Below are positions 38,217 through 52,005 of a DNA stretch of 64,000 nt, one piece after another. The stretch is from assembly GCA_963850305.1 (NCBI GenBank), contig CAWKKR010000008.1, forward strand, positions 160,001-224,000, read 5' to 3'. Every line of letters starts with the position of its first letter. Position 1 is the stretch's first letter. The position numbers and the translations under genes were made by a program. Source of the DNA: an uncultured delta proteobacterium. GTDB taxonomy: Bacteria > Myxococcota_A > Polyangia > Polyangiales > Polyangiaceae. The notes under the pieces were generated by a model. The model had not been told where the DNA came from and did no database searches. It saw only the letters and a program-made list of their open reading frames with translations.

Positions 38217-39506
38217 CTACTCCGGCGAAGGGTAGTTCCGTTTCACGAAGCACAGACCGTCGGAGTTCAGGTGGCCCTGGGTGCTCTGATCGTACGTGGC
38301 GAAGTCGTAGTAATCGCGGAGACCCGTCGCGGGGTTGCCATTCGTCGCGTGGGGCACGCTTTGGGGATCGAAGCTCATGGGGCCGACGAACTTCGGGTGC
38401 ACGTCGGTGGGCGGCGGGGTGCAGTAGCGCCACTCGAGCGCGGTGCCGAGCGCGTCCGTGTACGCAGTGTAGTCGACTCCCTTCGTCAGCTCGAGCGTCA
38501 CGGTCGGCACACCCGCGTCCGGTCCGACGACGCGCGCCGCGAATTGATCGAAGTGTGCCGGTGAGTCGTGCAGCACGCTGTCCCAGAACGGATGGTCCGT
38601 GTGGATGGTCACCTGTCCGATGACCGACGCATTGCTCTCCAGCGCGATGCCGCGCTCATGCTCTTCGTCGGGGAACGGCGCCGCGGGATCGTTGTCGGGG
38701 TTCTGGCAGTTCAGATAGGACGTCGGTGACTTGAAGCACAACCTGAAGTTCACCGTGTCGGGCCAGCCCTGTCGGTCCGGCGGATAGCAACCCGGGTCGG
38801 TCTTGTCACCCTTGAACGTCGCCGTCCCGACGTAGAAGACGACGCAGTCGTCCGCTACCATCGTCTGGTAGTCCGCCAATGAAGCCGCGTCCAAGTTGAC
38901 GTTGTACGCAGACATCGTGGCGTTGACGGTGTCGAAGCCGAACGCGTACCGCGTCCCATCCGTCGCGAACGGCTGATTCCCGTTCTTGTTCTGTTTCGAC
39001 AGGGCGGCGATGGGCGCCGCTTCTTCGCCCGCGCCGCCTTTGCCCGGGAGATAGCTCGGGTCGCTGTGGGCGAGATCGATCGCCCACGGGCCGTCCACTT
39101 CCGCGACCTCGGAGCCGGTCTTCGATTGGTCGCCGGGCACGGCGTCCGGATTGTTCGACAGCGTGATCTTGTCGATCGTGACGAGCAGGCGTGTGAACTT
39201 CACGTCCCAACCGTCGACGAAGGCGGGGTCGTCGGGCTGTATCGGGGGGAACGGATACCCGGTTAGCGCCAGGACCTCCCCCGATGCCGCGAAGAGAATG
39301 CCGCCACCTCCAGGATCCGAGGGAGGTGTGAATGCCCGCAGGCCGCCGCTGGTGCCGGACGAACCACCGCTCCCTGTCGAGGCGTCCGAGCCGGGTGAGC
39401 CGCCGGCGCCCTCCGATGTGCCTGTGTCATTGCTGGAGCAAGCGCAGAGGCCTGCGAGCGCCGCTGCGCATACGATGAATCTGGAAACGTGGATATTCTT
39501 CTTCAT
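38217..39506 (-). CDS. Lipoprotein of unknown function in the TonB-receptor operon
   Basis: Lipobox LCA-C; FVDGWDVKF, TIHTDHPFW, HFD, GHLN; AAGGA RBS. Confidence 0.8.
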   Translation of the reverse strand: MKKNIHVSRFIVCAAALAGLCACSSNDTGTSEGAGGSPGSDASTGSGGSSGTSGGLRAFTPPSDPGGGGILFAASGEVLALTGYPFPPIQPDDPAFVDGWDVKFTRLLVTIDKITLSNNPDAVPGDQSKTGSEVAEVDGPWAIDLAHSDPSYLPGKGGAGEEAAPIAALSKQNKNGNQPFATDGTRYAFGFDTVNATMSAYNVNLDAASLADYQTMVADDCVVFYVGTATFKGDKTDPGCYPPDRQGWPDTVNFRLCFKSPTSYLNCQNPDNDPAAPFPDEEHERGIALESNASVIGQVTIHTDHPFWDSVLHDSPAHFDQFAARVVGPDAGVPTVTLELTKGVDYTAYTDALGTALEWRYCTPPPTDVHPKFVGPMSFDPQSVPHATNGNPATGLRDYYDFATYDQSTQGHLNSDGLCFVKRNYPSPE

Positions 39507-39575: not shown

Positions 39576-40409
39576 CTAGAGCGCCGGATCCCAGCTGAAC
39601 GTGAAGAGCGAACCTGCGCTGTGGAGGTCCAAGTAAAGGTTCGTGCTCGGCTGCGAGTAGAACGCCGGTGACGTTGGATTGATGTCGCCCGGGTCGTCGC
39701 TGAACGTGTAGACGCCGTTCCTCGAGACGAGCTGTCCGAAGTCCACGTTCACGAAGAGCTGGCGCGGGTCGATCCGGAGGAGCAGCCCGCCGGTGGTCTC
39801 GAGCGTCACGTCCGTCTCGATGGGAGACACGATGCGCTGCTTGCAGATCGGGTCCGCGCCCGCGGTGACGCCGGTCGATTCGGCGCGGTTGCTGGAGATG
39901 GTGATCTGACCGACGAATGGGCGCACGTCCGTCCCGAGCGTCGCCGTGCCTTCGACGTCGAGGATGGGACTCGTATCCGGGTCCGCGACTTCATTGACGT
40001 CCCCATGCGTGAGCCACACCTGACCGACGAGAGCCTGGAGGGTCGTGCCGTGTCCTTCGCCCGGAAAGTCCTGGGGAGCGGGCGACAGGAGATCGATGTC
40101 GAGAGCCGTCAGGACTTCCGCGACGTACGTGCCGGGCAGGATGCACGCGGAGTTCTGCGCGCCGGACACGGGCAGACTCTGTTCGAGGTACATCGCGCCG
40201 ACGTGCAAGGTCGCCTTCGTGAGAGAGACGGTCCACCCTCGGTCCGTGGTGAAGTCGAGGGGTTGCCCCGCAGTAGCGTCCGCCGGTCCCGCGGCAGCCG
40301 CGGGAAAGTCGATGATGTCGTCCCCCGTCGTGCCGGTGCACGCGGCGGACGAGAGCGCCATCGCGACGGAAACCAGGGTGCGCAGGGCCGTCGAGCTGCG
40401 GAACTTCAT
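39576..40409 (-). CDS. Lipoprotein of unknown function in the TonB-receptor operon
   Basis: ATG overlaps the receptor stop (TGATG); lipobox SAA-C; GWTVSLTKATLHVG. Confidence 0.8.
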   Translation of the reverse strand: MKFRSSTALRTLVSVAMALSSAACTGTTGDDIIDFPAAAAGPADATAGQPLDFTTDRGWTVSLTKATLHVGAMYLEQSLPVSGAQNSACILPGTYVAEVLTALDIDLLSPAPQDFPGEGHGTTLQALVGQVWLTHGDVNEVADPDTSPILDVEGTATLGTDVRPFVGQITISSNRAESTGVTAGADPICKQRIVSPIETDVTLETTGGLLLRIDPRQLFVNVDFGQLVSRNGVYTFSDDPGDINPTSPAFYSQPSTNLYLDLHSAGSLFTFSWDPAL

Positions 40410-43006
40410 CACGAACCTCCCAGGTTGATCGCGAGGTGGGCGAAGATGCCGAGCGGCGGACCCGCCGTGAAGGCGCGCTCGGGGACGAGCGTCGGTTGCG
40501 CCTGGCTGTGGAAGTCCGAGGCGTAGTTGTATTCGCCGAGCCGGTACTTGGCGTCGAAGAGGTTCGTCGCGGTGAGACCGATCTCGTAGTGCGACCATCT
40601 CAGGGTCGCCGATGCGTCGGTCGTGAAGATGGTGTCGCTGCGCTGGCCATAAGGGAGCGCGCGCGGCCCGACGTAGGTGATACCGGCGCTGACGGAGCCG
40701 CGCACGTCGGAGCCGCCGAGGGTGAACGGCAGCGCGCCGAAGTACGCGGTGTCCGAGCGGAACACCGCGTCCGGCACGTAAGCGACGAGCAGGTGCGTAT
40801 CATCGTACGTCGACTTCACGAGCGTCAGGTTCGCGGACTCGTCGAAGTGGGTTCCCGTGAGCCGCAGAGCGCCGACCCAGCCGTTCCGGGTCGTGCCCGT
40901 ACCGAGCACGTTCCGGCCCTCGGTTTCGCTGAAGATGAGGTCCTTGTCGACGTGGGTCTGGAAGAGGATCGAGCGGGCGACGACGGACATCACGTCGAAC
41001 TCGTGCGCGTAGGTCACGCCGCCCTCGTACGCGACCACGCTCGCGAACGGGGTCTTCACGTCCTGGGTGATGTAGCTCGGGTCGACGGAGCGGACGCCTT
41101 TGCCGTAGCTCGCGCTGAACGAGAAGTGCTCGTAAGGGCCGAGGATCACCGACGCTCGCGGCAGGAGCGCCGTGCTCGACGTGCTGATCTCCTGGTTCGG
41201 TTCCCGCGGACGGCCGAATTCTTCCTGCGTGAGGCAGCTCTGGTCGATGGGCGGGTTCGTCGGGGACGGATGCGCGACGGACTGGGCTGCGCAAAGATCG
41301 TTGACGTGATACGTGAGCACGTCCGCACGGAACCCGCCTCGAAGCGTCAGCCACCACGCCGGCTTCACGTTGCCGTCGGCATAGAGTCCGAGGTCGCCGA
41401 TCTGGGAATCCAGATCCGTGTCGGTCTTGTACGGATTTCCGGTCGCCGCTTCGAGCCGTTGCTCGAGCCCCGTCACCTGGTCCCCGCGGGCGAAGTACCC
41501 GAGCTCGAGCGACTGCTTCTGTCCGAAAGCTTTGGCCGTGTACGTGGACGCGCCGCGGGCGCCGAACGTCAACTCGGTGACGTTCATGTCGATCATGTCG
41601 CCACGCTGCTCGTGCAAGCTCTGGAGAGGTTCCTGGACGTCGAGGAGAAATCCGGTGAAGTCCTCGAGCAGGCGCATGTCGCGTTGGATGAGGAAGAACT
41701 GCTGCGCGAACGTCGTGTCGCCGTCCTTCAACGTGAGATCCCCGGCGACGGAGTAACGGGATGAGTCCCCTCCCGGAAGCACCGCCTGTCGCGCAAAAGA
41801 GGAGAGCGCGTAGCTGTCGTAAAAACCGATGCGGCCAGCCTTGTAGTCGTCTTCTCGGATGACGCCCGCGGAGTGGTAGTGCGTGCTGTAGGCCTGCGCG
41901 GTGATGCGATACGAGCCGTTGTTGCCGAGACGGCCCTCGTACTGACCCATCGCGGTGCCGTGCTGCGCGTCCCGGTTCTGTCCGAACCCGTTCGTCGTGT
42001 AGATGTCGGCCCCGGCGAACGTCCGCGTGCTCTCACCCTTCGGGCCCCACGTCAGGAGCAAGCGCTCGGTGCCCCAGCTCCCTGCGGTATACTTCGCGGT
42101 GAGGCCGCGCCGATCGAGGCCGAGTTCGTAGTCTGCGCTGCCCGCGACCGCGTAGTTGCCTTGCCGCGGATCGAATGGTCCTTCTACGACGCGTAACCCG
42201 TTCACGAGCTCGGGGATGATGAAGTGGGTGTCCGCGTAGCCGTTACCGTGGAGGTTGCCGCTCTCGTTGATGGGCACGCCGTCCACCGTGAATTCGATGT
42301 CCTGCCCTTCGCGCGCATCGAAGCCGCGCATGAACACCTGCTCGGCGTGGCCTTCGCCGCTCTCGTTCGTGAGAAGGATCCCCGGGGCGAGCTTCAAGAA
42401 CCCCGTCGCGTTCTGTCGCGGCACCTGAGCGAGCGCGCCGATGTGCAGATTGAAATCCGAAGCGCCGCGGCTCGGAGGCGCTACACGCCCCGTCACGGTG
42501 ACGGCTTCGGGCGGTGCTTCCGGCGCGATCTCCGGCGCGGTCGGGCCCGGCGTGGTTGCCGGCGGGGGCGCGGCCGGCAACGGTTGCACGGCATTCCGCG
42601 ACGGGAGCTCGGGCTCCGGACCTTTCACCGGCTCCACCCACTCGGGCGGCGGCGCCGGCGGTGCGAAATGGAAGGGGACGCGGATGCGGCTCGCGACGGG
42701 CTTGTCGTTGCGCTGCGCGGGAACGAACGTCCACTGGCGCGCCGCGACGATGGCGGCTTCGTCGAGATCCGCGCCGCCCGAAGTGAGCACGTCCACCTTC
42801 GAGACGTGGCCATCGACGTCGACGGTGAGCGCGAGCACGACGTCCCCGTGTTTGCGCTCCTTCAGGGCCGCGGGCGGATAGACGGCGTCCACATGCGTGA
42901 GGACCGTTGGCGGCGTGACCGCGGCGGCTTGTGCCCGCGCCGCAGGGGTCAATCCGAGGATGAGACCGAACACCGCGCAGGCCGCAATTTCGTTGAGACG
43001 GGACAA
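40409..43006 (-). CDS. TonB-dependent receptor with N-terminal TonB-C-like domain
   Basis: Signal peptide; YPPAAL...VVLALTVDVDG...QWTFVPA TonB-C domain; plug EGHAEQVFMRGFD, HGNGYAD, GPFDPRQG; barrel ending NLFD...AINLGGS. Confidence 0.92.
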   Translation of the reverse strand: MSRLNEIAACAVFGLILGLTPAARAQAAAVTPPTVLTHVDAVYPPAALKERKHGDVVLALTVDVDGHVSKVDVLTSGGADLDEAAIVAARQWTFVPAQRNDKPVASRIRVPFHFAPPAPPPEWVEPVKGPEPELPSRNAVQPLPAAPPPATTPGPTAPEIAPEAPPEAVTVTGRVAPPSRGASDFNLHIGALAQVPRQNATGFLKLAPGILLTNESGEGHAEQVFMRGFDAREGQDIEFTVDGVPINESGNLHGNGYADTHFIIPELVNGLRVVEGPFDPRQGNYAVAGSADYELGLDRRGLTAKYTAGSWGTERLLLTWGPKGESTRTFAGADIYTTNGFGQNRDAQHGTAMGQYEGRLGNNGSYRITAQAYSTHYHSAGVIREDDYKAGRIGFYDSYALSSFARQAVLPGGDSSRYSVAGDLTLKDGDTTFAQQFFLIQRDMRLLEDFTGFLLDVQEPLQSLHEQRGDMIDMNVTELTFGARGASTYTAKAFGQKQSLELGYFARGDQVTGLEQRLEAATGNPYKTDTDLDSQIGDLGLYADGNVKPAWWLTLRGGFRADVLTYHVNDLCAAQSVAHPSPTNPPIDQSCLTQEEFGRPREPNQEISTSSTALLPRASVILGPYEHFSFSASYGKGVRSVDPSYITQDVKTPFASVVAYEGGVTYAHEFDVMSVVARSILFQTHVDKDLIFSETEGRNVLGTGTTRNGWVGALRLTGTHFDESANLTLVKSTYDDTHLLVAYVPDAVFRSDTAYFGALPFTLGGSDVRGSVSAGITYVGPRALPYGQRSDTIFTTDASATLRWSHYEIGLTATNLFDAKYRLGEYNYASDFHSQAQPTLVPERAFTAGPPLGIFAHLAINLGGS

Positions 43007-43196
43007 GAGGATGAGTCTCCAGAACGTTGCAAGAATCGGGGCGCGACGGCGCCCGTCGGATGGACCCTCGATCGACCACGAAGGTGCGACAGTTTCGCGT
43101 TCGCGATCGAAATCGGCGGGTAACTACACGCATCGGTTGCGCGAGAAAGCGCTCAGGGGTAACCGCGCGCTCGTTCGCTCGGACGGGCGAATGCCG

Positions 43197-43607
43197 TCAG
43201 ACCGGCGGCGACGTCTTCGGCGCGTATGCGAGCGCGTCGGTCGGGACGACCACGATGAGCACGGGCGCTTCCGGCGCGATCGTCGCTCGGACCCGCACGA
43301 ACGCCAGCATTGCGTCGTGCGCGCGCGAGCTCGCTGGCCGGATCGGCACCGCGGCGAGCGAGCAGTGCTCGTGGTGCCGACCGGTCGTCGAGTTCCGGGA
43401 GACTTCCGGGCGTTTCCCTGGGTTCGAGCGCCGGTAATCGATCCTCGGCAGCTCCGCGACGTCCATGAGCTCGCCGTGCTCCGGACACACGACGTGGTGC
43501 ACGGTGGCCAGGTGCACATCGCGCCACAGATCGCCGAAAATGAACGTCGATATCCAGACGATCGCGACGAGGCGAAATGCAAGCCGGGCGGGCGAACCGA
43601 GAACCAT
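43197..43607 (-). CDS. Small exported His/Cys-rich protein (DUF2946-like architecture), putative leader
   Basis: Hydrophobic N-terminus, HLATVHHVVCPEHGE, HHEHC, C-terminal ALAYAPKTSPPV; 190 nt upstream of the receptor on the same strand. Confidence 0.65.
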   Translation of the reverse strand: MVLGSPARLAFRLVAIVWISTFIFGDLWRDVHLATVHHVVCPEHGELMDVAELPRIDYRRSNPGKRPEVSRNSTTGRHHEHCSLAAVPIRPASSRAHDAMLAFVRVRATIAPEAPVLIVVVPTDALAYAPKTSPPV

Positions 43608-43737
43608 ACGCGCGGACCGCGTTTTCGCACCGGTCGCGCGCGCCGTCAACTCGTGACGGCTCGTCCACGCGGTTGGTCGCGCCGAGTTCACCTCGGAGCG
43701 TTCGGGGGTATCGTCTTCGCTCCGAAGGAGAACCCCC

Positions 43738-44377: not shown

Positions 44378-46063
44378 TCACGGCCGCGGCACGATCGGGA
44401 GGCGCTTGTTCGGCGTCGTCGGGCCGCGGAGCTCGACGTCTTCGAGGAGGAGCGAAGGGGCGACTATGGACGCGGGGATATCGAGGCCGCCGTCATTCTC
44501 GGTCACGAAGCTGTAGACCGCCGTGTCCCTGCCGAAGGCGAGGATGTCGCGGAGGTCGCGGACGGACATGGGCGCGAAGGTGGCTCCACGGATCGGTGTT
44601 TCCGTGCCGTCGAGCGCGACGCGATACGCGAGCTCGGGCGCGGGCATGAGCTCGCCGCTCGTCGCGCTGGTGCGGGTCTGGAGTTCCTCGACGACGAGAC
44701 CCGATTCGATGCCTTCGTCGCGGAGGGCCTGAACGAAGCGCGCGCGGAGGGCGGATGGACTCAAACCGTGCTTGCCGGTCATGATGAGGTTCGCGACGCG
44801 ACCGCGCGCCCATCCGACGAGGCCCGAGCGACCGTGGCCGTTCGAATGCGCGAAGCCGTCGCGCGGAGTCCGCGACATGAGGAAGTTCCGCAGACGGCCG
44901 TCGTCGATCAGGAGCACGCGCTCGCCGAAGATGCCCTCGTCGTCCACGACGTAGTGGCCGAGCAGCGGCGTTCCTTCCCAGCTCGTGAGCGTCGGGTCGT
45001 CGAATACCGTCAGCCCGCGCGGCAGCACGCGCTTACCGACGCGGCGAGCGAGAGGGCTCTCCATGCCTTCGTTGAGTTCGGCCGGCGGCGTTCCCGAAAG
45101 GGACTCGCCGAGGAGCTCGTACACGAGCTGCGCCGCAGCGCGGCCTTCGAACAGAACGGGGCCGCTGTAGTCCTGGGCGCTTTGCGCGCGCTGTAGAGAG
45201 CCGAGTTCGGCGCCGATGCGACGGGCCTGCGAGAGGGCCGCGGCTTCGGGGAGCGGCCCGTTCTCCGGCGCGGCGAGGAACGCGCTGCGTTCGATGGCCA
45301 TTCCGTCGGTTGCCTGACCCGCGCAGGTGATTTCGATGCCCGCGAACCGCGAAGGTTCGATCGCGAGGCCGCCGTCGCTTGCGAGAAAGCGTCTCTTGTC
45401 GGACGCCTCGAGCACGTGAACGCTGCTCCTCTGCACGGCGGGGAACGATCCGAAGACCGCGGACACGTGGCGAGCGACTTCGAGCGGATCGCCGAGCACG
45501 CCGGGCGGAGGGTCTTTCACGATCGTGGCGGACGAGGTGTCCGTCGAGAAGCTCGGCACTTCGGCGCGAGTCGCGATCTCGGATTGCCGGGTGGCCTGCT
45601 TCTTTTCGAGCGCGGCGACGGCGTCCTTGTACGCGCCGTCGGTGGCGAGCCAGAGGTCGCGTCGGATCGCGTCGGCGTCGTCGTCCACGGTGACGGCCGT
45701 CGGGGCCGAGTCACTGACGGGATCGCCGTCCGTGCTCACCGCGAGGGCGAGGTTCGAGTTGTCGGATTCGCGCGTACCGACGCGGAGCTCGACCTTGATG
45801 AAACAATCGCGCGTGAGCTCGTCAGAGACGACGGCGCCGAGGGTCGCCTCGACGCTGCGCTCGTTCTCGTCGACGAGCCAGTATGCGACGTAATAAGGGG
45901 CAGGCGCGCTCGGCAGTTTGAGCTGCCGGGTCGCGCGCGTGAGCTCGGCCCGCATCGCGCCGAAGAGCACCGCGTCGGTCGGCGGAGGCTCCGCGGCGCC
46001 GAGCAACGGCAACGCGCACGCTGCGACGAACCAGAGCCGGCCGGGTGCCCTGCGGACCCTCAT
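44378..46063 (-). CDS. TldE/PmbA-like subunit with signal peptide
   Basis: YSGPVLFEGRAA, DDPT, DDEG, FLMSRTP, SNGHGR, APSLL; no HExxxH motif; ATGA-coupled to the TldD gene. Confidence 0.85.
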   Translation of the reverse strand: MRVRRAPGRLWFVAACALPLLGAAEPPPTDAVLFGAMRAELTRATRQLKLPSAPAPYYVAYWLVDENERSVEATLGAVVSDELTRDCFIKVELRVGTRESDNSNLALAVSTDGDPVSDSAPTAVTVDDDADAIRRDLWLATDGAYKDAVAALEKKQATRQSEIATRAEVPSFSTDTSSATIVKDPPPGVLGDPLEVARHVSAVFGSFPAVQRSSVHVLEASDKRRFLASDGGLAIEPSRFAGIEITCAGQATDGMAIERSAFLAAPENGPLPEAAALSQARRIGAELGSLQRAQSAQDYSGPVLFEGRAAAQLVYELLGESLSGTPPAELNEGMESPLARRVGKRVLPRGLTVFDDPTLTSWEGTPLLGHYVVDDEGIFGERVLLIDDGRLRNFLMSRTPRDGFAHSNGHGRSGLVGWARGRVANLIMTGKHGLSPSALRARFVQALRDEGIESGLVVEELQTRTSATSGELMPAPELAYRVALDGTETPIRGATFAPMSVRDLRDILAFGRDTAVYSFVTENDGGLDIPASIVAPSLLLEDVELRGPTTPNKRLPIVPRP

Positions 46064-47850
46064 CTGGAAGCCGGACCTTCCCCGGCGAGCGAAGGCGCAG
46101 GGAGCAACGGGGGGCGATCGTCGCTCTTTTCCCGGCGAGTCACCTCGATGGACCCGAGCAGCAAGCTCGGACTCGACGCGGAGACGGGAACCCAGCCCGA
46201 CTCGGCGCCGCAAACGCCGTTGAAGACTTCGAAATCGTTACCGGCTGCCTCGACTCGCTCGAGTGACGCGAGCGGGGTCCCCTCGATGTCCACGCCGCGC
46301 ACGAGCTCTTCGCGTCCGTCCGGGTAAACGCGATAGACCATCACCGGCAGAACCTTGAAGGCCTGCGATGCGGCGCGCGTCGTGTTGGTGAAGCCGCCGC
46401 TGATCTCGTGGAAGCGAAGGCCGAACGGCTTGCCGTCCCTCTTGATGTCGTCGATGAGGCGCTGCTTGAGTGCGGCCGGAGAGGTCGTTCGCGTCGGATC
46501 GACGATGAGGTTCGCCTGCCGCGAGACGATACGATGGCCGTGCTCGCGCCGGCCGTGGCCATTCGACCCGCGGAAGCCGGCAATGGGCGAGCGCGAAAGG
46601 AGAAAGTCCCGGAGCACGCCGTCCGTGACGAGGTTCGCACGCGCCCCGCGCACGGCTTCGTCGTCGAAGGGGTAGTAGCCGTTGAGGGGGACGCCGTTGA
46701 GGGCCGAGACCGAGGGGTCGTCGTAGACGTCGAGAAACGACGGCATCACCAGCTGACCCACGCGATGCGAGAAGGTCTGGCCTTCTTCCTCGTCTTTCTG
46801 ACGATGCCCCTCCATCCGGTGTCCGAAGATCTCGTGAAAGAATACGCCAGCGGCGCGCCCGTCGAGGATTGCCGGGCCGCTATAGGGGTCGATGGGGGGA
46901 GCTTTCCTGAGCGCGAGCAGATCCTGGATGACGCGCGTCACGAGCCCTTCGACGGCCTCGTCGTTCGGCAACGCTTCGATGGACGGCGCGTCCACGGTCT
47001 CCGTCCGCTCGAGGCGCATGCCGTCGTCGGCCGTGGTGCTCGCCGTGACCTCGACGCGACCGTGCGTGCGCGCGACCTGCACGCTCGAACCTTCGGTGTC
47101 GATCACATAGCGCGTCTCGGCCGACGCCTGCAGCGTCACCGAAGACTCCAGGATCTCCGGATGCTCGGCGAATGCCGCCGAACACCGTCGCACACGCGCC
47201 TCCCACGACGGCACGTCGACGGTGATCGAGGCGGGCGCCTCATGGAACACGGCGACGGGCGCGCTCGGAAAATCATTCGACGCATCCTCTTCCGCCACGA
47301 GGACTTGCTGGTTCGCCTTCACCCGGACGAAGTCTTCGATCGCCCGCCGGTACTCCGTGTTCGTCGTGAGCCACGCGACGTTGCGGAGCGCGGGCGCGTC
47401 GTCGTCGAGGGGCAGCCATGCGGAGCGCGTGAACTCTCGCGACGCGTCATATTCGTCGCGGAGCCGGTGCGTGTTGTCGAGCTTCGGAGTCCCCACACGA
47501 ACATCGACGTCGAGGCTCCTCGAGCAATCGTCGGTCGAGCTCTCCAGCTTGCCGAACGACCCTTCGACCGTGACGCCATGCTCGTCGATGGCTTCGTATT
47601 CGATGAAGTAAGGCGGCAGCTCCGCGCGCGTGCCGAGTTCGTGGAAGTTCCGGGTAAGCTCGTCGCCGAGGATCTTCAGGACCGGCGCGGCTTCGGCGGT
47701 CCCGACCGCCGGCGGCTGCGTCAGTTCGAGCCGTTTCGGCGCGACCGGCAAGGGCGGTGGCAGAACGCCATGCGCCTCTCGCGGACCGCGCATCCCCGAG
47801 CACGAGAGCACCGCCAGAGCGAAGACGGCGGACCACCGCGCAGACGGCAT
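46060..47850 (-). CDS. TldD-like metalloprotease, probable lipoprotein
   Basis: FFHEIFGHRMEG, DDEA, SNGHGR, SRQANL, GVCGAESG; N-terminal LAVLS-C lipobox. Confidence 0.9.
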   Translation of the reverse strand: MPSARWSAVFALAVLSCSGMRGPREAHGVLPPPLPVAPKRLELTQPPAVGTAEAAPVLKILGDELTRNFHELGTRAELPPYFIEYEAIDEHGVTVEGSFGKLESSTDDCSRSLDVDVRVGTPKLDNTHRLRDEYDASREFTRSAWLPLDDDAPALRNVAWLTTNTEYRRAIEDFVRVKANQQVLVAEEDASNDFPSAPVAVFHEAPASITVDVPSWEARVRRCSAAFAEHPEILESSVTLQASAETRYVIDTEGSSVQVARTHGRVEVTASTTADDGMRLERTETVDAPSIEALPNDEAVEGLVTRVIQDLLALRKAPPIDPYSGPAILDGRAAGVFFHEIFGHRMEGHRQKDEEEGQTFSHRVGQLVMPSFLDVYDDPSVSALNGVPLNGYYPFDDEAVRGARANLVTDGVLRDFLLSRSPIAGFRGSNGHGRREHGHRIVSRQANLIVDPTRTTSPAALKQRLIDDIKRDGKPFGLRFHEISGGFTNTTRAASQAFKVLPVMVYRVYPDGREELVRGVDIEGTPLASLERVEAAGNDFEVFNGVCGAESGWVPVSASSPSLLLGSIEVTRREKSDDRPPLLPAPSLAGEGPASR

Positions 47851-47921
47851 GGCTCGCAACCTACTCCACGCTCGCGAAGCGAGGCGAACTCAGGTTCCCG
47901 GCAGACCGAGGCGCATGCCGC

Positions 47922-50025: not shown

Positions 50026-50053
50026 TTGACCGGTAAGGGTGGGTGGTTAAGTT
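50026..50053 (+). promoter_or_regulatory. Candidate promoter for dnaK
   Basis: TTGACC-16 nt-TAAGTT upstream of the GGAG RBS and ATG at 50091. Confidence 0.4.
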
Positions 50054-50090
50054 GCCGGCAAATTCGGCGAAAGGGAACCGGAGAAGACAC

Positions 50091-52005
50091 ATGGGCAAGA
50101 TCATCGGCATCGACTTGGGCACGACGAATAGCGTCGTCGCGGTGATGGAAGGGAAGGACCCGAAGGTCATCGTGAACGAGGAGGGAGCGCGCCTGACGCC
50201 GTCGGTCGTTGCTTGGGACGACAAGGGAGAGATTCTCGTCGGCACCATCGCGAAGCGTCAGGCGGTGACTAATCCCGAGAACACCGTTTACTCCTCGAAG
50301 CGCTTCATCGGACGAAGGTACGAGGAGGTGACTCAAGAGGCGGAGCGCGTTCCGTTCAAGGTCACCAAGGGCAAGAACGGAGACGCATGGATTTCCGCGC
50401 GCGGGAAGGAGATGGCTCCGCCCGAGGTGAGCGCCAAGGTCCTCCTGAAACTGAAGAAAGCGGCGGAGGACTATCTGGGTGAAGAAGTGAAGGAGGCGGT
50501 CATCACGGTTCCCGCCTACTTCAACGACGCGCAACGCCAGGCGACGAAGGACGCCGGGCAAGCATCGCCGGCCTCGACGTGAAGCGCATCATCAACGAGC
50601 CGACGGCGGCGGCGCTCGCGTACGGTCTCGACAAGAAGAGCAACGAGGTCATCGCCGTCTACGACTTCGGCGGAGGCACGTTCGACATTTCGATCCTCGA
50701 GGTAGGCGACAACGTCGTGCAGGTCATCTCGACCAACGGCGACACGCACCTCGGCGGCGACGACGTGGACATTCTCATCATGGACTATCTGATCCGGCGA
50801 ATTCCGGAAGGACACGGGCATCGACGTCGGCAAGGACAAGATGGTCATCCAGCGCCTGAAGGATGCCGCAGAACAGGCGAAAATCGAGCTCTCGAGCAAG
50901 CAGGAGACGACGATCAATCTGCCGTTCCTCACCGCGGACGCGAGCGGCCCGAAGCACCTGCAGAAGACGCTCACGCGCGCGAAGCTGGAGCAGATGATCC
51001 GGCCGCTCATCGACCGCACGATGGAACCCGTGAAGAAGGCGCTCGCGGATGCGAAGAAGTCGCCGAGCAACATCGACGAGGTCGTCCTCGTCGGCGGCTC
51101 GACGCGCATCCCGCTCGTGCAAGAGACGGTCATCAAGTTCTTCGGAAAAGAGCCGCACAAGGGCGTGAACCCGGACGAAGTGGTGGCGGTCGGCGCGGCC
51201 GTCCAGGGCGGCGTGCTCTCCGGCGACGTGAAGGACGTCGTCCTGCTGGACGTGACGCCGCTCTCGCTGGGCGTGGAGACGCTAGGTGGCGTCATGACGG
51301 TCATGATCCCGCGCAACACGACGATCCCGACGCAGAAGAAGGAGATCTACTCGACGGCAAGCGACAGCCAGCCGTCGGTCGAGATCCACGTGCTGCAGGG
51401 AGAGCGTGCCGAGGCGCGCTACAACCGGACGCTCGGGCGCTTCCATCTCGACGGACTTCCGCCCGCTCCGCGCGGCATCCCCAAGGTGGAAGTGACATTC
51501 GACATCGACGCGAACGGCATTTTGTCGGTCGCCGCCAAGGACATCGCGACGGGCAAGGACCAGCGCATCACGATCACGGCGAACAGCGGTCTCCAGGAGA
51601 AGGAGATCGAGCGCATGGTGAAGGAAGCGCAGGAGCACGAGGAAGAGGACAAGCGTCGGCGCGAGGAAGTGGAACGCCGGAACAAGCTCGACAACCTTTG
51701 CTACCAGCTCGAAAAGCAGATCGCCGACAACAAGGACAAGCTCTCCGGCGTCGATCTGGGCAGCGTCGAAGCGCTCATCAAGGAGGGCCGCGAAGCCCTC
51801 GAGAAGCAAGACGACGCAAAGGTCGGCAGCGTGCTCGAACGGCTCGAGAAGGAGGCCCACACGATGGCCTCGAAGCTTTACGAGCAATCGGGCGGACCGC
51901 CGCCGGGCGCCGGGGGCGCGGCTCCCGGGGGGCGACCGACGGATGCGGGCTGGCGGCAAGAAGAAGGGTGACGTGATCGACGCCGAGTTCGAAGAAGGCG
52001 CGTAA
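50091..52005 (+). CDS. dnaK: Chaperone DnaK (Hsp70), three apparent frameshifts (about 50560, 50795, 51950)
   Basis: [48 protein letters not shown]-terminal [10 protein letters not shown] ending at 52005. Confidence 0.96.

Follow-up and report, generated by a model that had tools for sequence, protein, structure and literature searches.

A candidate zinc-responsive arrest-peptide leader upstream of metal-uptake genes in Myxococcota

We describe a short open reading frame (ORF), found in a 64,000-nucleotide stretch of DNA from an uncultured delta proteobacterium (hereafter the window, meaning the whole stretch that was analysed), which on balance we consider to encode a cis-acting zinc sensor: a ribosome pause at the motif APKxSPP would keep the uptake genes that follow it on. 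The parts of this reading differ in strength. That the ORF is a cis-acting arrest leader we regard as very likely; if it is one, then zinc is the signal with good confidence; and release of the stall on binding is likely, to a slightly smaller degree. The most complete version, in which a natural zinc-sensing APKxSPP arrest peptide with a two-part His/Cys latch has replaced Zur repression in many lineages of Myxococcota, most of those sampled also being without Rho, is tentative, and we give it a little less than an even chance.

Leaders of this class are known already, as represented by CruR, CutF, the CutF-like clusters and the published lists of RAPP peptides; the APKxSPP tail and the proposed link to zinc appear to be new. 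(Statements about cited papers refer to the portions of their texts that were available.) The known nascent-chain metal sensors, CruR and CutF, respond to copper, and the riboswitches covered in the first half of the text of a 2024 review respond to B12, Moco, Mn, Ni/Co/Fe, Mg, Li, Na, Ca and F, zinc not being among them. A zinc-responsive arrest peptide, if that is what the ORF encodes, would mean that zinc homeostasis also has a post-transcriptional arm. It would also be a natural counterpart of the engineered zinc-finger/SecM force sensor, in which zinc-driven folding releases SecM arrest (PMC4571824), and APKxSPP, if it stalls, would be a new motif for structural work on the ribosome. Finally, the pattern of leader or Zur box described below would provide a clean example in which orthologous operons have exchanged transcriptional for translational control.

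The leader ORF

The ORF list and its translation place the leader, a predicted metal-sensing arrest peptide of 136 amino acids with an ATG start, on the reverse strand at positions 43197-43607 of the window. The initial annotation had reported an ORF of about this length with an export-like N-terminus and an APKxSPP-type end, and all of this is borne out. A hydrophobic segment at residues 9-25 (43533-43583, reverse strand) would act as an export signal or signal anchor, judging by its hydropathy and by a modelled helix; its 15-residue KD maximum is 2.1, and this measure exceeds 1.5 in 99% of 122 homologues. In the structure model the single N-terminal helix spans residues 6-35, with a core pLDDT >90, and the remainder is mostly extended apart from a small hairpin (pTM 0.39; best Z 3.1, no fold match).

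Two clusters of potential metal ligands follow the helix, H32-xxxx-H37-H38-xx-C41-P-E-H44-G-E (43470-43514) and H78-H79-E-H81-C82 (43362-43376), both on the reverse strand. The C-terminus reads ALAYAPKTSPPV, followed by the stop codon, and contains the candidate arrest motif A129-P-K-T-S-P-P135 (43203-43223, reverse strand) one residue from the stop; C82 lies 53 residues before P135. The motif is more than a chance occurrence: the six-frame translation of the 6.26-Mb genome contains the pattern APKx[SAG]PP 4 times, with a stop no more than 6 residues away in 2 of these. Two other readings of the ORF were ruled out on anatomy: a C-terminal sorting signal, since the tail has neither a transmembrane segment nor a basic end, and a RiPP precursor.

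We think it probable that the leader is transcribed from a promoter of its own, with a very short 5' UTR, because a predicted -35 element, TTGACG (43644-43649, reverse strand), lies 37 nt 5' of the ATG and TTGAC is enriched at this place in other leader loci: in 25 of 43 independent loci it lies between 70 and 230 nt 5' of the H32 codon, with 3.3 expected. A candidate -10 hexamer, GAAAAC (43621-43626, reverse strand), is a weak match to the consensus and stands 17 nt after the -35 element and 13 nt before the ATG. A strict sigma-70 scan of the window did not call the TTGACG promoter. The gene upstream of the leader is divergent and belongs to the glyoxalase family.

Conservation of the leader family

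The ORF matches no family in Pfam or NCBIfam. Six homologues were found directly, and a query built from the alignment of the ORF with these first 6 retrieves 3,210 cluster representatives (50% clustering) with E<=1e-3. Thirty-eight leader loci lie in GTDB genomes, labelled mostly as Myxococcota or delta proteobacterium, with some Planctomycetota and one Bdellovibrionia. As to the earlier suggestion of a possibly undescribed family, the sequences are unnamed in Pfam and NCBIfam and their motif strings were not found in the literature searched; the class to which they belong is known from CruR, CutF and the RAPP leaders.

Among 122 aligned members, residues H32, H38, C41, H44, C82, A129, P130, P134 and P135 are invariant, and K131 (99%), S133 (94%) and H79 (89%) nearly so. 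Thus, both ligand motifs first proposed, HxxxxHHxxCxEHGE and HHEHC, are present and hold five invariant ligands, but H37 and H78 are not conserved. The residue three before the last proline, which is Arg in RAPP, is T in 80% of the 122 members and otherwise Q, H, N, A or S.

Since these 122 members were selected by a profile that includes the C-terminal tail, we assessed conservation of the tail separately, using a DNA pattern restricted to the N-terminal motif, which matches at least 120 metagenome stretches. Of the 104 complete frames among the matches listed, 57 have APKx[SAG]PP at their end. When the listed matches are divided by hydrophobicity (10 were dropped for too little upstream frame and 20 for too little downstream DNA, and duplicates were kept), 56 of the 62 hydrophobic matches contain the motif in frame and 2 more contain it in a shifted frame, as opposed to 1 of the 28 non-hydrophobic ones. 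Inspected by eye, the four hydrophobic matches without the motif comprise two from another, longer protein family and two that look frameshifted. It had been proposed that homologues be collected and the distance of APKxSPP from the stop compared; the motif proves to lie close to the stop, the tail after the last proline being 1-5 residues long in 129 of 150 proteins. Every codon of APKxSPP varies at its third base while the residues hold (67 loci), and so the motif is conserved at the level of the peptide.

The spacing between the second cluster and the tail is constrained as well. The distance from C82 to the last proline is 49-54 residues in 121 of the 122 members, with a standard deviation of 1.45 (3.8 for the distance from C41 to C82), and it falls in the same range in 50 of 54 distinct N-terminal-motif matches among those listed; the linker that it spans has no conserved residue. 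In 39 of the 122 members (e.g. P0003 and P0065; loci L001, L027 and L038), the query not being one of them, an extra R[AG]PP stands about 10 residues before the last proline, which makes this subgroup a candidate for two stall sites in tandem.

Relation to DUF2946 and other arrest peptides

The leader was initially regarded as analogous to CruR and CutF. A build like that of CruR and CutF is supported, but the leader family is probably more than a mere analogue: we consider it a likely remote offshoot of DUF2946 that has neither CxxC nor RAPP, because it has the same Cys-to-Pro spacing, weak Pfam matches to DUF2946, and hybrid forms. We therefore take it to function in the manner of CruR and CutF and probably to share their ancestry, but do not count it as a member of DUF2946. 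With respect to spacing, the first Cys of CxxC and the last Pro of RAPP stand 52-53 residues apart in four DUF2946 matches (three above the Pfam cut-off, and L288). In CruR (Bp2923 of Bordetella pertussis, PF11162) the interval from C90 to P142 is 52, and a 5-residue insertion strongly cut regulation (PMC9426467). With respect to Pfam, the leader ORF itself has no match to PF11162 (DUF2946) at E<=1; 41 of the 122 members match it at that threshold, as compared with 3 for the next family, and PF11162 searched singly against 60 members gives one score above the gathering cut-off (24.1 vs 23.7). As for hybrid forms, two leaders that precede orthologous receptors (L375:959-1297 and L376:880-1308) combine a His run and CxxC with an end of the form R-A-P-x-T-S-P-P, and are possible links between DUF2946 and the leader family.

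An hhalign comparison of the leader family with one DUF2946 protein was not significant, and the leader-family HMM gives four DUF2946 proteins scores that do not exceed the best obtained for their shuffled versions. A feature match in the Atlas (0.92) links the leader to clusters with 15% DUF2946. PF11162 was not found in 41 relatives, and neither a pattern scan of viral contigs nor plasmid searches for DUF2946 sequences returned anything usable.

Like CruR, for which arrest has been shown (PMC12992588), the leader is a small exported-type upstream ORF, first in its operon, with a long gap before a TonB receptor and a conserved Cys 52-53 residues before the last proline of a C-terminal Pro-Pro motif. 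Unlike CruR, the leader family has kept the equivalent of the first Cys, C82, without CxxC (Cys is not among the eight commonest residues at C82+3), has four to five conserved His in addition, and ends in APKTSPP with no RAPP; where a DUF2946 match has WCTAQG, the leader family has VCxEHG. RAPP upstream ORFs with ICAEHG do occur in a published table. The targets also differ from those of CruR, being zinc-type ABC and receptor operons, and rho was found neither in this genome nor in 14 of 15 leader genomes. Because the signal sequence of CruR is dispensable, sensing by the leader could be cytoplasmic.

The leader resembles the CutF-like proteins (named for CutF of Rhodobacter capsulatus) by the filter of PMC9973294, having fewer than 150 residues, PP in its last 15 residues and a same-strand neighbour within 1 kb; the N-terminal signal is assigned from the hydrophobic helix. 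As in CutF, an output that depends on sequestering the ribosome-binding site (RBS) is predicted, here for the short-spacer members. In contrast to CutF, the ligand set and tail are different and the predicted polarity is opposite. The CutF-like proteins form 29 clusters (PMC9973294), and the main text of that paper mentions neither zinc nor Deltaproteobacteria; a few leader-family members may be among them.

The leader shares with the RAPP/RGPP peptides ApdA, ApdP and SecM (PMC10951233, PMC10987492, PMC12992588) a localisation signal at its N-terminus and, shortly before the stop, a C-terminal Pro-Pro. RAPP arrest depends critically on its Arg (PMC10951233), but the corresponding position varies in the leader family, and conservation lies instead in A-P-K at -6 to -4; none of the papers found demonstrates stalling at APKxSPP. 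Given that the critical Arg is missing, the chemistry of stalling would differ from that of RAPP; replacement of the Ala by Ser is partly tolerated (PMC12992588). A KTSPP-type motif is absent from the main texts and supplements of PMC10951233, PMC10987492 and PMC12992588 in the parts that were searched. The published RAPP lists include neighbours of zinc receptors. Searches for the motif strings found no bacterial paper, and the literature on zinc, leaders and stalling yielded no matching system (some supplements of PMC9973294 and PMC12992588 lie outside this search).

Downstream genes

In the window, the leader is followed on the same strand by a TonB-dependent receptor of 865 amino acids with a fused N-terminal TonB_C domain (40409-43006; Pfam TonB_C and Plug), for which a PDB sequence search for the substrate gave no match. 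Two probable lipoproteins come next on this strand: one of 277 amino acids (39576-40409), whose start overlaps the receptor stop and which has no Pfam family, and one of 429 amino acids (38217-39506), the third gene of the operon. Their homologues occur in 5 of the 38 leader loci, behind the receptor, and in 9 of the 38, respectively. The language-model features of the 429-residue protein resemble those of MbnP clusters (score 0.91; no Pfam match), which we treat as a lead only. The MbnP family is linked to copper.

Across the 38 loci, and within the DNA that was fetched, a cluster A-I (ZnuA-type) binding protein is found in 22, an unannotated outer-membrane-type protein of about 420 residues in 23, and a TonB receptor in 11, of which 9 match the window receptor and 2 more were recognized by Pfam. 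The profiles for the binding protein and the 420-residue protein were built from these same loci; the ZnuA assignment was confirmed independently by Pfam. Thus, the position upstream of metal-uptake genes, which the initial annotation had singled out for comparison, is conserved. In the binding proteins, three His at metal-site positions are invariant, and the best PDB relatives of one of them are zinc transporters. A scan of 119 downstream proteins found no copper chaperone or oxidase family and no sec or yidC family. The 420-residue family, to which the first downstream genes of L001, L002, L006-L008, L012 and others belong, has HxH and a C-terminal GAHGAHxF, adjoins ZnuA-type genes in many genomes, and shows weak likeness to porin P only.

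One variant leader (L311), ending in APKQGPP, heads an outer-membrane efflux (OEP) gene, and would for that reason need the opposite polarity. It is relevant to a reading in which the leader undergoes a plain EF-P-sensitive slowdown at Pro-Pro that metal prolongs, or acts as a secretion monitor, with no zinc-released stall. There is a precedent in CutF, which stalls at PPP in an EF-P-dependent manner when Cu binds (bioRxiv 2025.02.05.636593), and L311 would require just this polarity. We nevertheless regard such a slowdown as quite improbable: the targets are mostly uptake genes, for which a stall on metal combined with RBS opening has the wrong sign, and the invariant A-P-K before SPP implies tunnel contacts beyond Pro-Pro. 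A secretion monitor is further opposed by the absence of sec and yidC families from the scanned proteins.

Leader versus predicted Zur box

If the leader senses zinc, we may ask how the same operons are controlled where the leader is absent. The sequence TGCAA-N5-TTGCA is the core of the predicted Zur site of Desulfovibrio (PMC545781). In one reverse search, we took the best 30 loci of the 420-residue gene in 91 genomes of the phylum. Fifteen of these have a leader (13 canonical and 2 variants recognized by eye, one off-frame match to the regular expression having been discarded) and 15 have none; the exact box lies upstream of 9 of the 15 leaderless loci vs 0 of the 15 leader loci. In a second reverse search, we took 30 loci of the window receptor and dropped one that had no upstream DNA. 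Of the remainder, 18 are preceded by a leader, which is a variant in 4 cases, and 11 are leaderless; the exact box occurs in 7 of the 11 vs 0 of the 18. The two orthologue sets together give 16 of 26 leaderless loci with the exact box and 0 of 33 leader loci. There are exceptions: three leader loci (L355, L363 and L367) have a box with one mismatch, and one of the 43 curated leader loci (L066) has the exact box.

Two receptors that share 60-61% identity, and come from the taxonomic family of the present genome, have the box and no leader, and one of them reads ATGCAACTGAGTTGCAT, identical to the predicted Zur site of Desulfovibrio desulfuricans (PMC545781). The likeness to predicted delta-proteobacterial Zur regulation (ATGCAACnnnGTTGCAT; PMC545781) is that the same box core precedes the leaderless orthologous operons; the difference is that Zur regulation is transcriptional repression by a Fur-family protein, in whose place the leader stands.

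In four box loci the neighbouring gene belongs to the Fur family, the four genes being related, although NCBIfam does not classify these regulators as Zur. More broadly, a Fur-family subfamily with HPHFxCxxC (L323, L335, L352 and L372) stands beside the palindrome TGCAA-N5-TTGCA, with boxes in L330, L333, L338-L340, L342, L344, L351, L357, L362, L369 and L370, and is a probable Zur-like regulon. This subfamily was not found in the present genome; it occurs in 3 of 15 leader genomes vs 19 of 26 others (p 0.0014), and with one genome per genus in 2 of 10 vs 19 of 25 (p 0.006). These counts of leaders, boxes and regulators include related genomes, and the p values overstate the evidence since kin are not independent. 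In the sample of the phylum, where leaders were recognized by a weaker 7-sequence profile, the subfamily occurs in 9 of 54 leader genomes vs 54 of 147 others, and leader and box-linked regulator are found together in 12 genomes across both samples. The sole exact TGCAA-N5-TTGCA site of the present genome is at C6:222798.

In lineages that carry it, then, the leader appears to do the job of a Zur-like repressor of sister lineages, where the Zur box, for its part, was predicted in another phylum and the regulator is a putative Zur. We take zinc as the signal because leaderless orthologous operons carry the predicted Zur box and leader genomes are mostly without the Fur-family repressor. Of the metals initially proposed, Zn, Ni, Co and Cu, zinc is favoured by this alternation and by the ZnuA-type targets, and the other three less so.

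We must weigh against this an arrest leader of the same kind that responds to another metal, be it copper, nickel or cobalt, or to divalent metals in general, in the manner of CruR and CutF. His/Cys ligands bind several metals, so those of the leader would fit such a sensor, as would the remote likeness to copper-linked DUF2946, the MbnP-like third gene and the efflux gene behind L311; moreover, cluster A-I binding proteins also carry Mn, and MntC is listed close behind AztC. This alternative is unlikely, however, as the leader has no CxxC, copper chaperone and oxidase families are absent among the 119 downstream proteins scanned, the His-triad binding proteins find zinc transporters as their best PDB matches, and the leader and the predicted Zur box exclude each other.

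Coupling to the downstream gene

The region between leader and receptor in the window (43007-43196, reverse strand) is exactly 190 nt long up to the TTG start of the receptor, as initially reported. It gave no Rfam match above the gathering score (two sub-threshold miRNA matches only) and no terminator-like site, and the intergenic regions of seven relatives gave no useful alignment, the sequence not being conserved. The receptor's Shine-Dalgarno sequence, GGAG at 43017-43020, is predicted to be enclosed in a local hairpin that also takes in the start of the receptor gene, whether or not a ribosome stalls.

Over all loci the median gap between leader and next gene is 109 nt. Downstream starts were picked by hand, and 10 of 10 tested ORFs agree exactly with database gene calls. 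At the 25 loci with a gap of at most 135 nt, the downstream RBS of the same locus is a better pairing partner for the 30 nt surrounding the motif than are those of other loci (z -3.4, p 0.0005), and three control windows show no effect; in 20 of the 25, the pairing of motif codons with the RBS beats synonymous recodings. The 18 long-spacer loci, including that of the window, show no preferential pairing (z -0.8, p 0.22). When the motif window is blocked, opening the RBS becomes cheaper by over 1.5 kcal/mol at 17 of the 43 loci, compared with 8 and 3 for controls. At the window locus, the cognate duplex of motif and RBS is no better than non-cognate ones, blocking the footprint shifts RBS opening by +0.4 kcal/mol, and equilibrium folding gives no RNA switch.

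These results might suggest that an RNA element, either a riboswitch or an anti-SD sequence, is what is conserved and that the peptide is incidental, given that the motif codons of short-spacer loci pair with the RBS better than recoded ones do. Yet third codon positions vary where residues do not, the intergenic regions are not conserved and lack an Rfam match above threshold, and the invariant His and Cys lie 50-100 codons upstream, so that we give this explanation hardly any weight.

A different alternative is that the ORF yields a mature zinc-binding protein, membrane-anchored or periplasmic, which acts in trans as a chaperone or as a sensor for another regulator, its tail being a docking or proteolysis signal. 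Five invariant ligands could make a stable site, and the absence of an RNA switch in long-spacer loci agrees with this. But no globular domain is predicted, the Cys-to-Pro distance is fixed across an unconserved linker, the ORF heads its operon behind its own predicted promoter with a median gap of 109 nt, short-spacer loci show cognate RBS pairing, and CutF does not complement in trans (PMC9973294). We judge a trans-acting protein improbable, to the same degree as a sensor of another metal, and prefer the cis-acting arrest leader.

An output through Rho, as in CruR, is unlikely for most leader genomes because rho (PF07497) was found in only 1 of 15 of them. Searches of the present genome, which is 94.8% complete, did not find it, nor was it found in any of the 7 genomes of the genus or in 37 of 41 relatives, bearing in mind that absence from incomplete genomes is no proof. 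Loss of Rho among these genomes is broader than the one Myxococcota species of 12 for which it was reported (PMC11347177). The C-over-G bubble is mild in the window, and near the motif it is accounted for by Pro and Ser codons.

Proposed mechanism

The conserved -35 element stands just upstream of the leader, and uptake genes follow on the same strand. Upon translation, the hydrophobic helix would take the nascent chain to SecYEG, and H32, H38, C41 and H44 would come to lie at the periplasmic face of the membrane. When zinc is scarce, elongation would stall at the two prolines; arrest at the stop codon is argued against by the variable length of the tail after the prolines. At the stall, C82 would be 52-53 residues from the peptidyl-transferase centre, a length that could reach the periplasmic mouth of the translocon. 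Zn2+ would then bridge the tethered His/Cys cluster and the emerging H79 and C82, pull the chain and free the ribosome. At short-spacer loci, the stalled ribosome is predicted to cover codons that otherwise pair with the RBS of the next gene, so that low zinc would mean ON and high zinc OFF.

Other features of the genome

A second paralogue of the window receptor, with 31% identity, lies elsewhere in the genome (C4:490678-493092). Within the window, positions 44378-47859 encode two neighbouring TldD/PmbA-domain proteins with signal-like N-termini, and a dnaK-like gene at 50043-51971 appears split over three reading frames, probably by assembly frameshifts.
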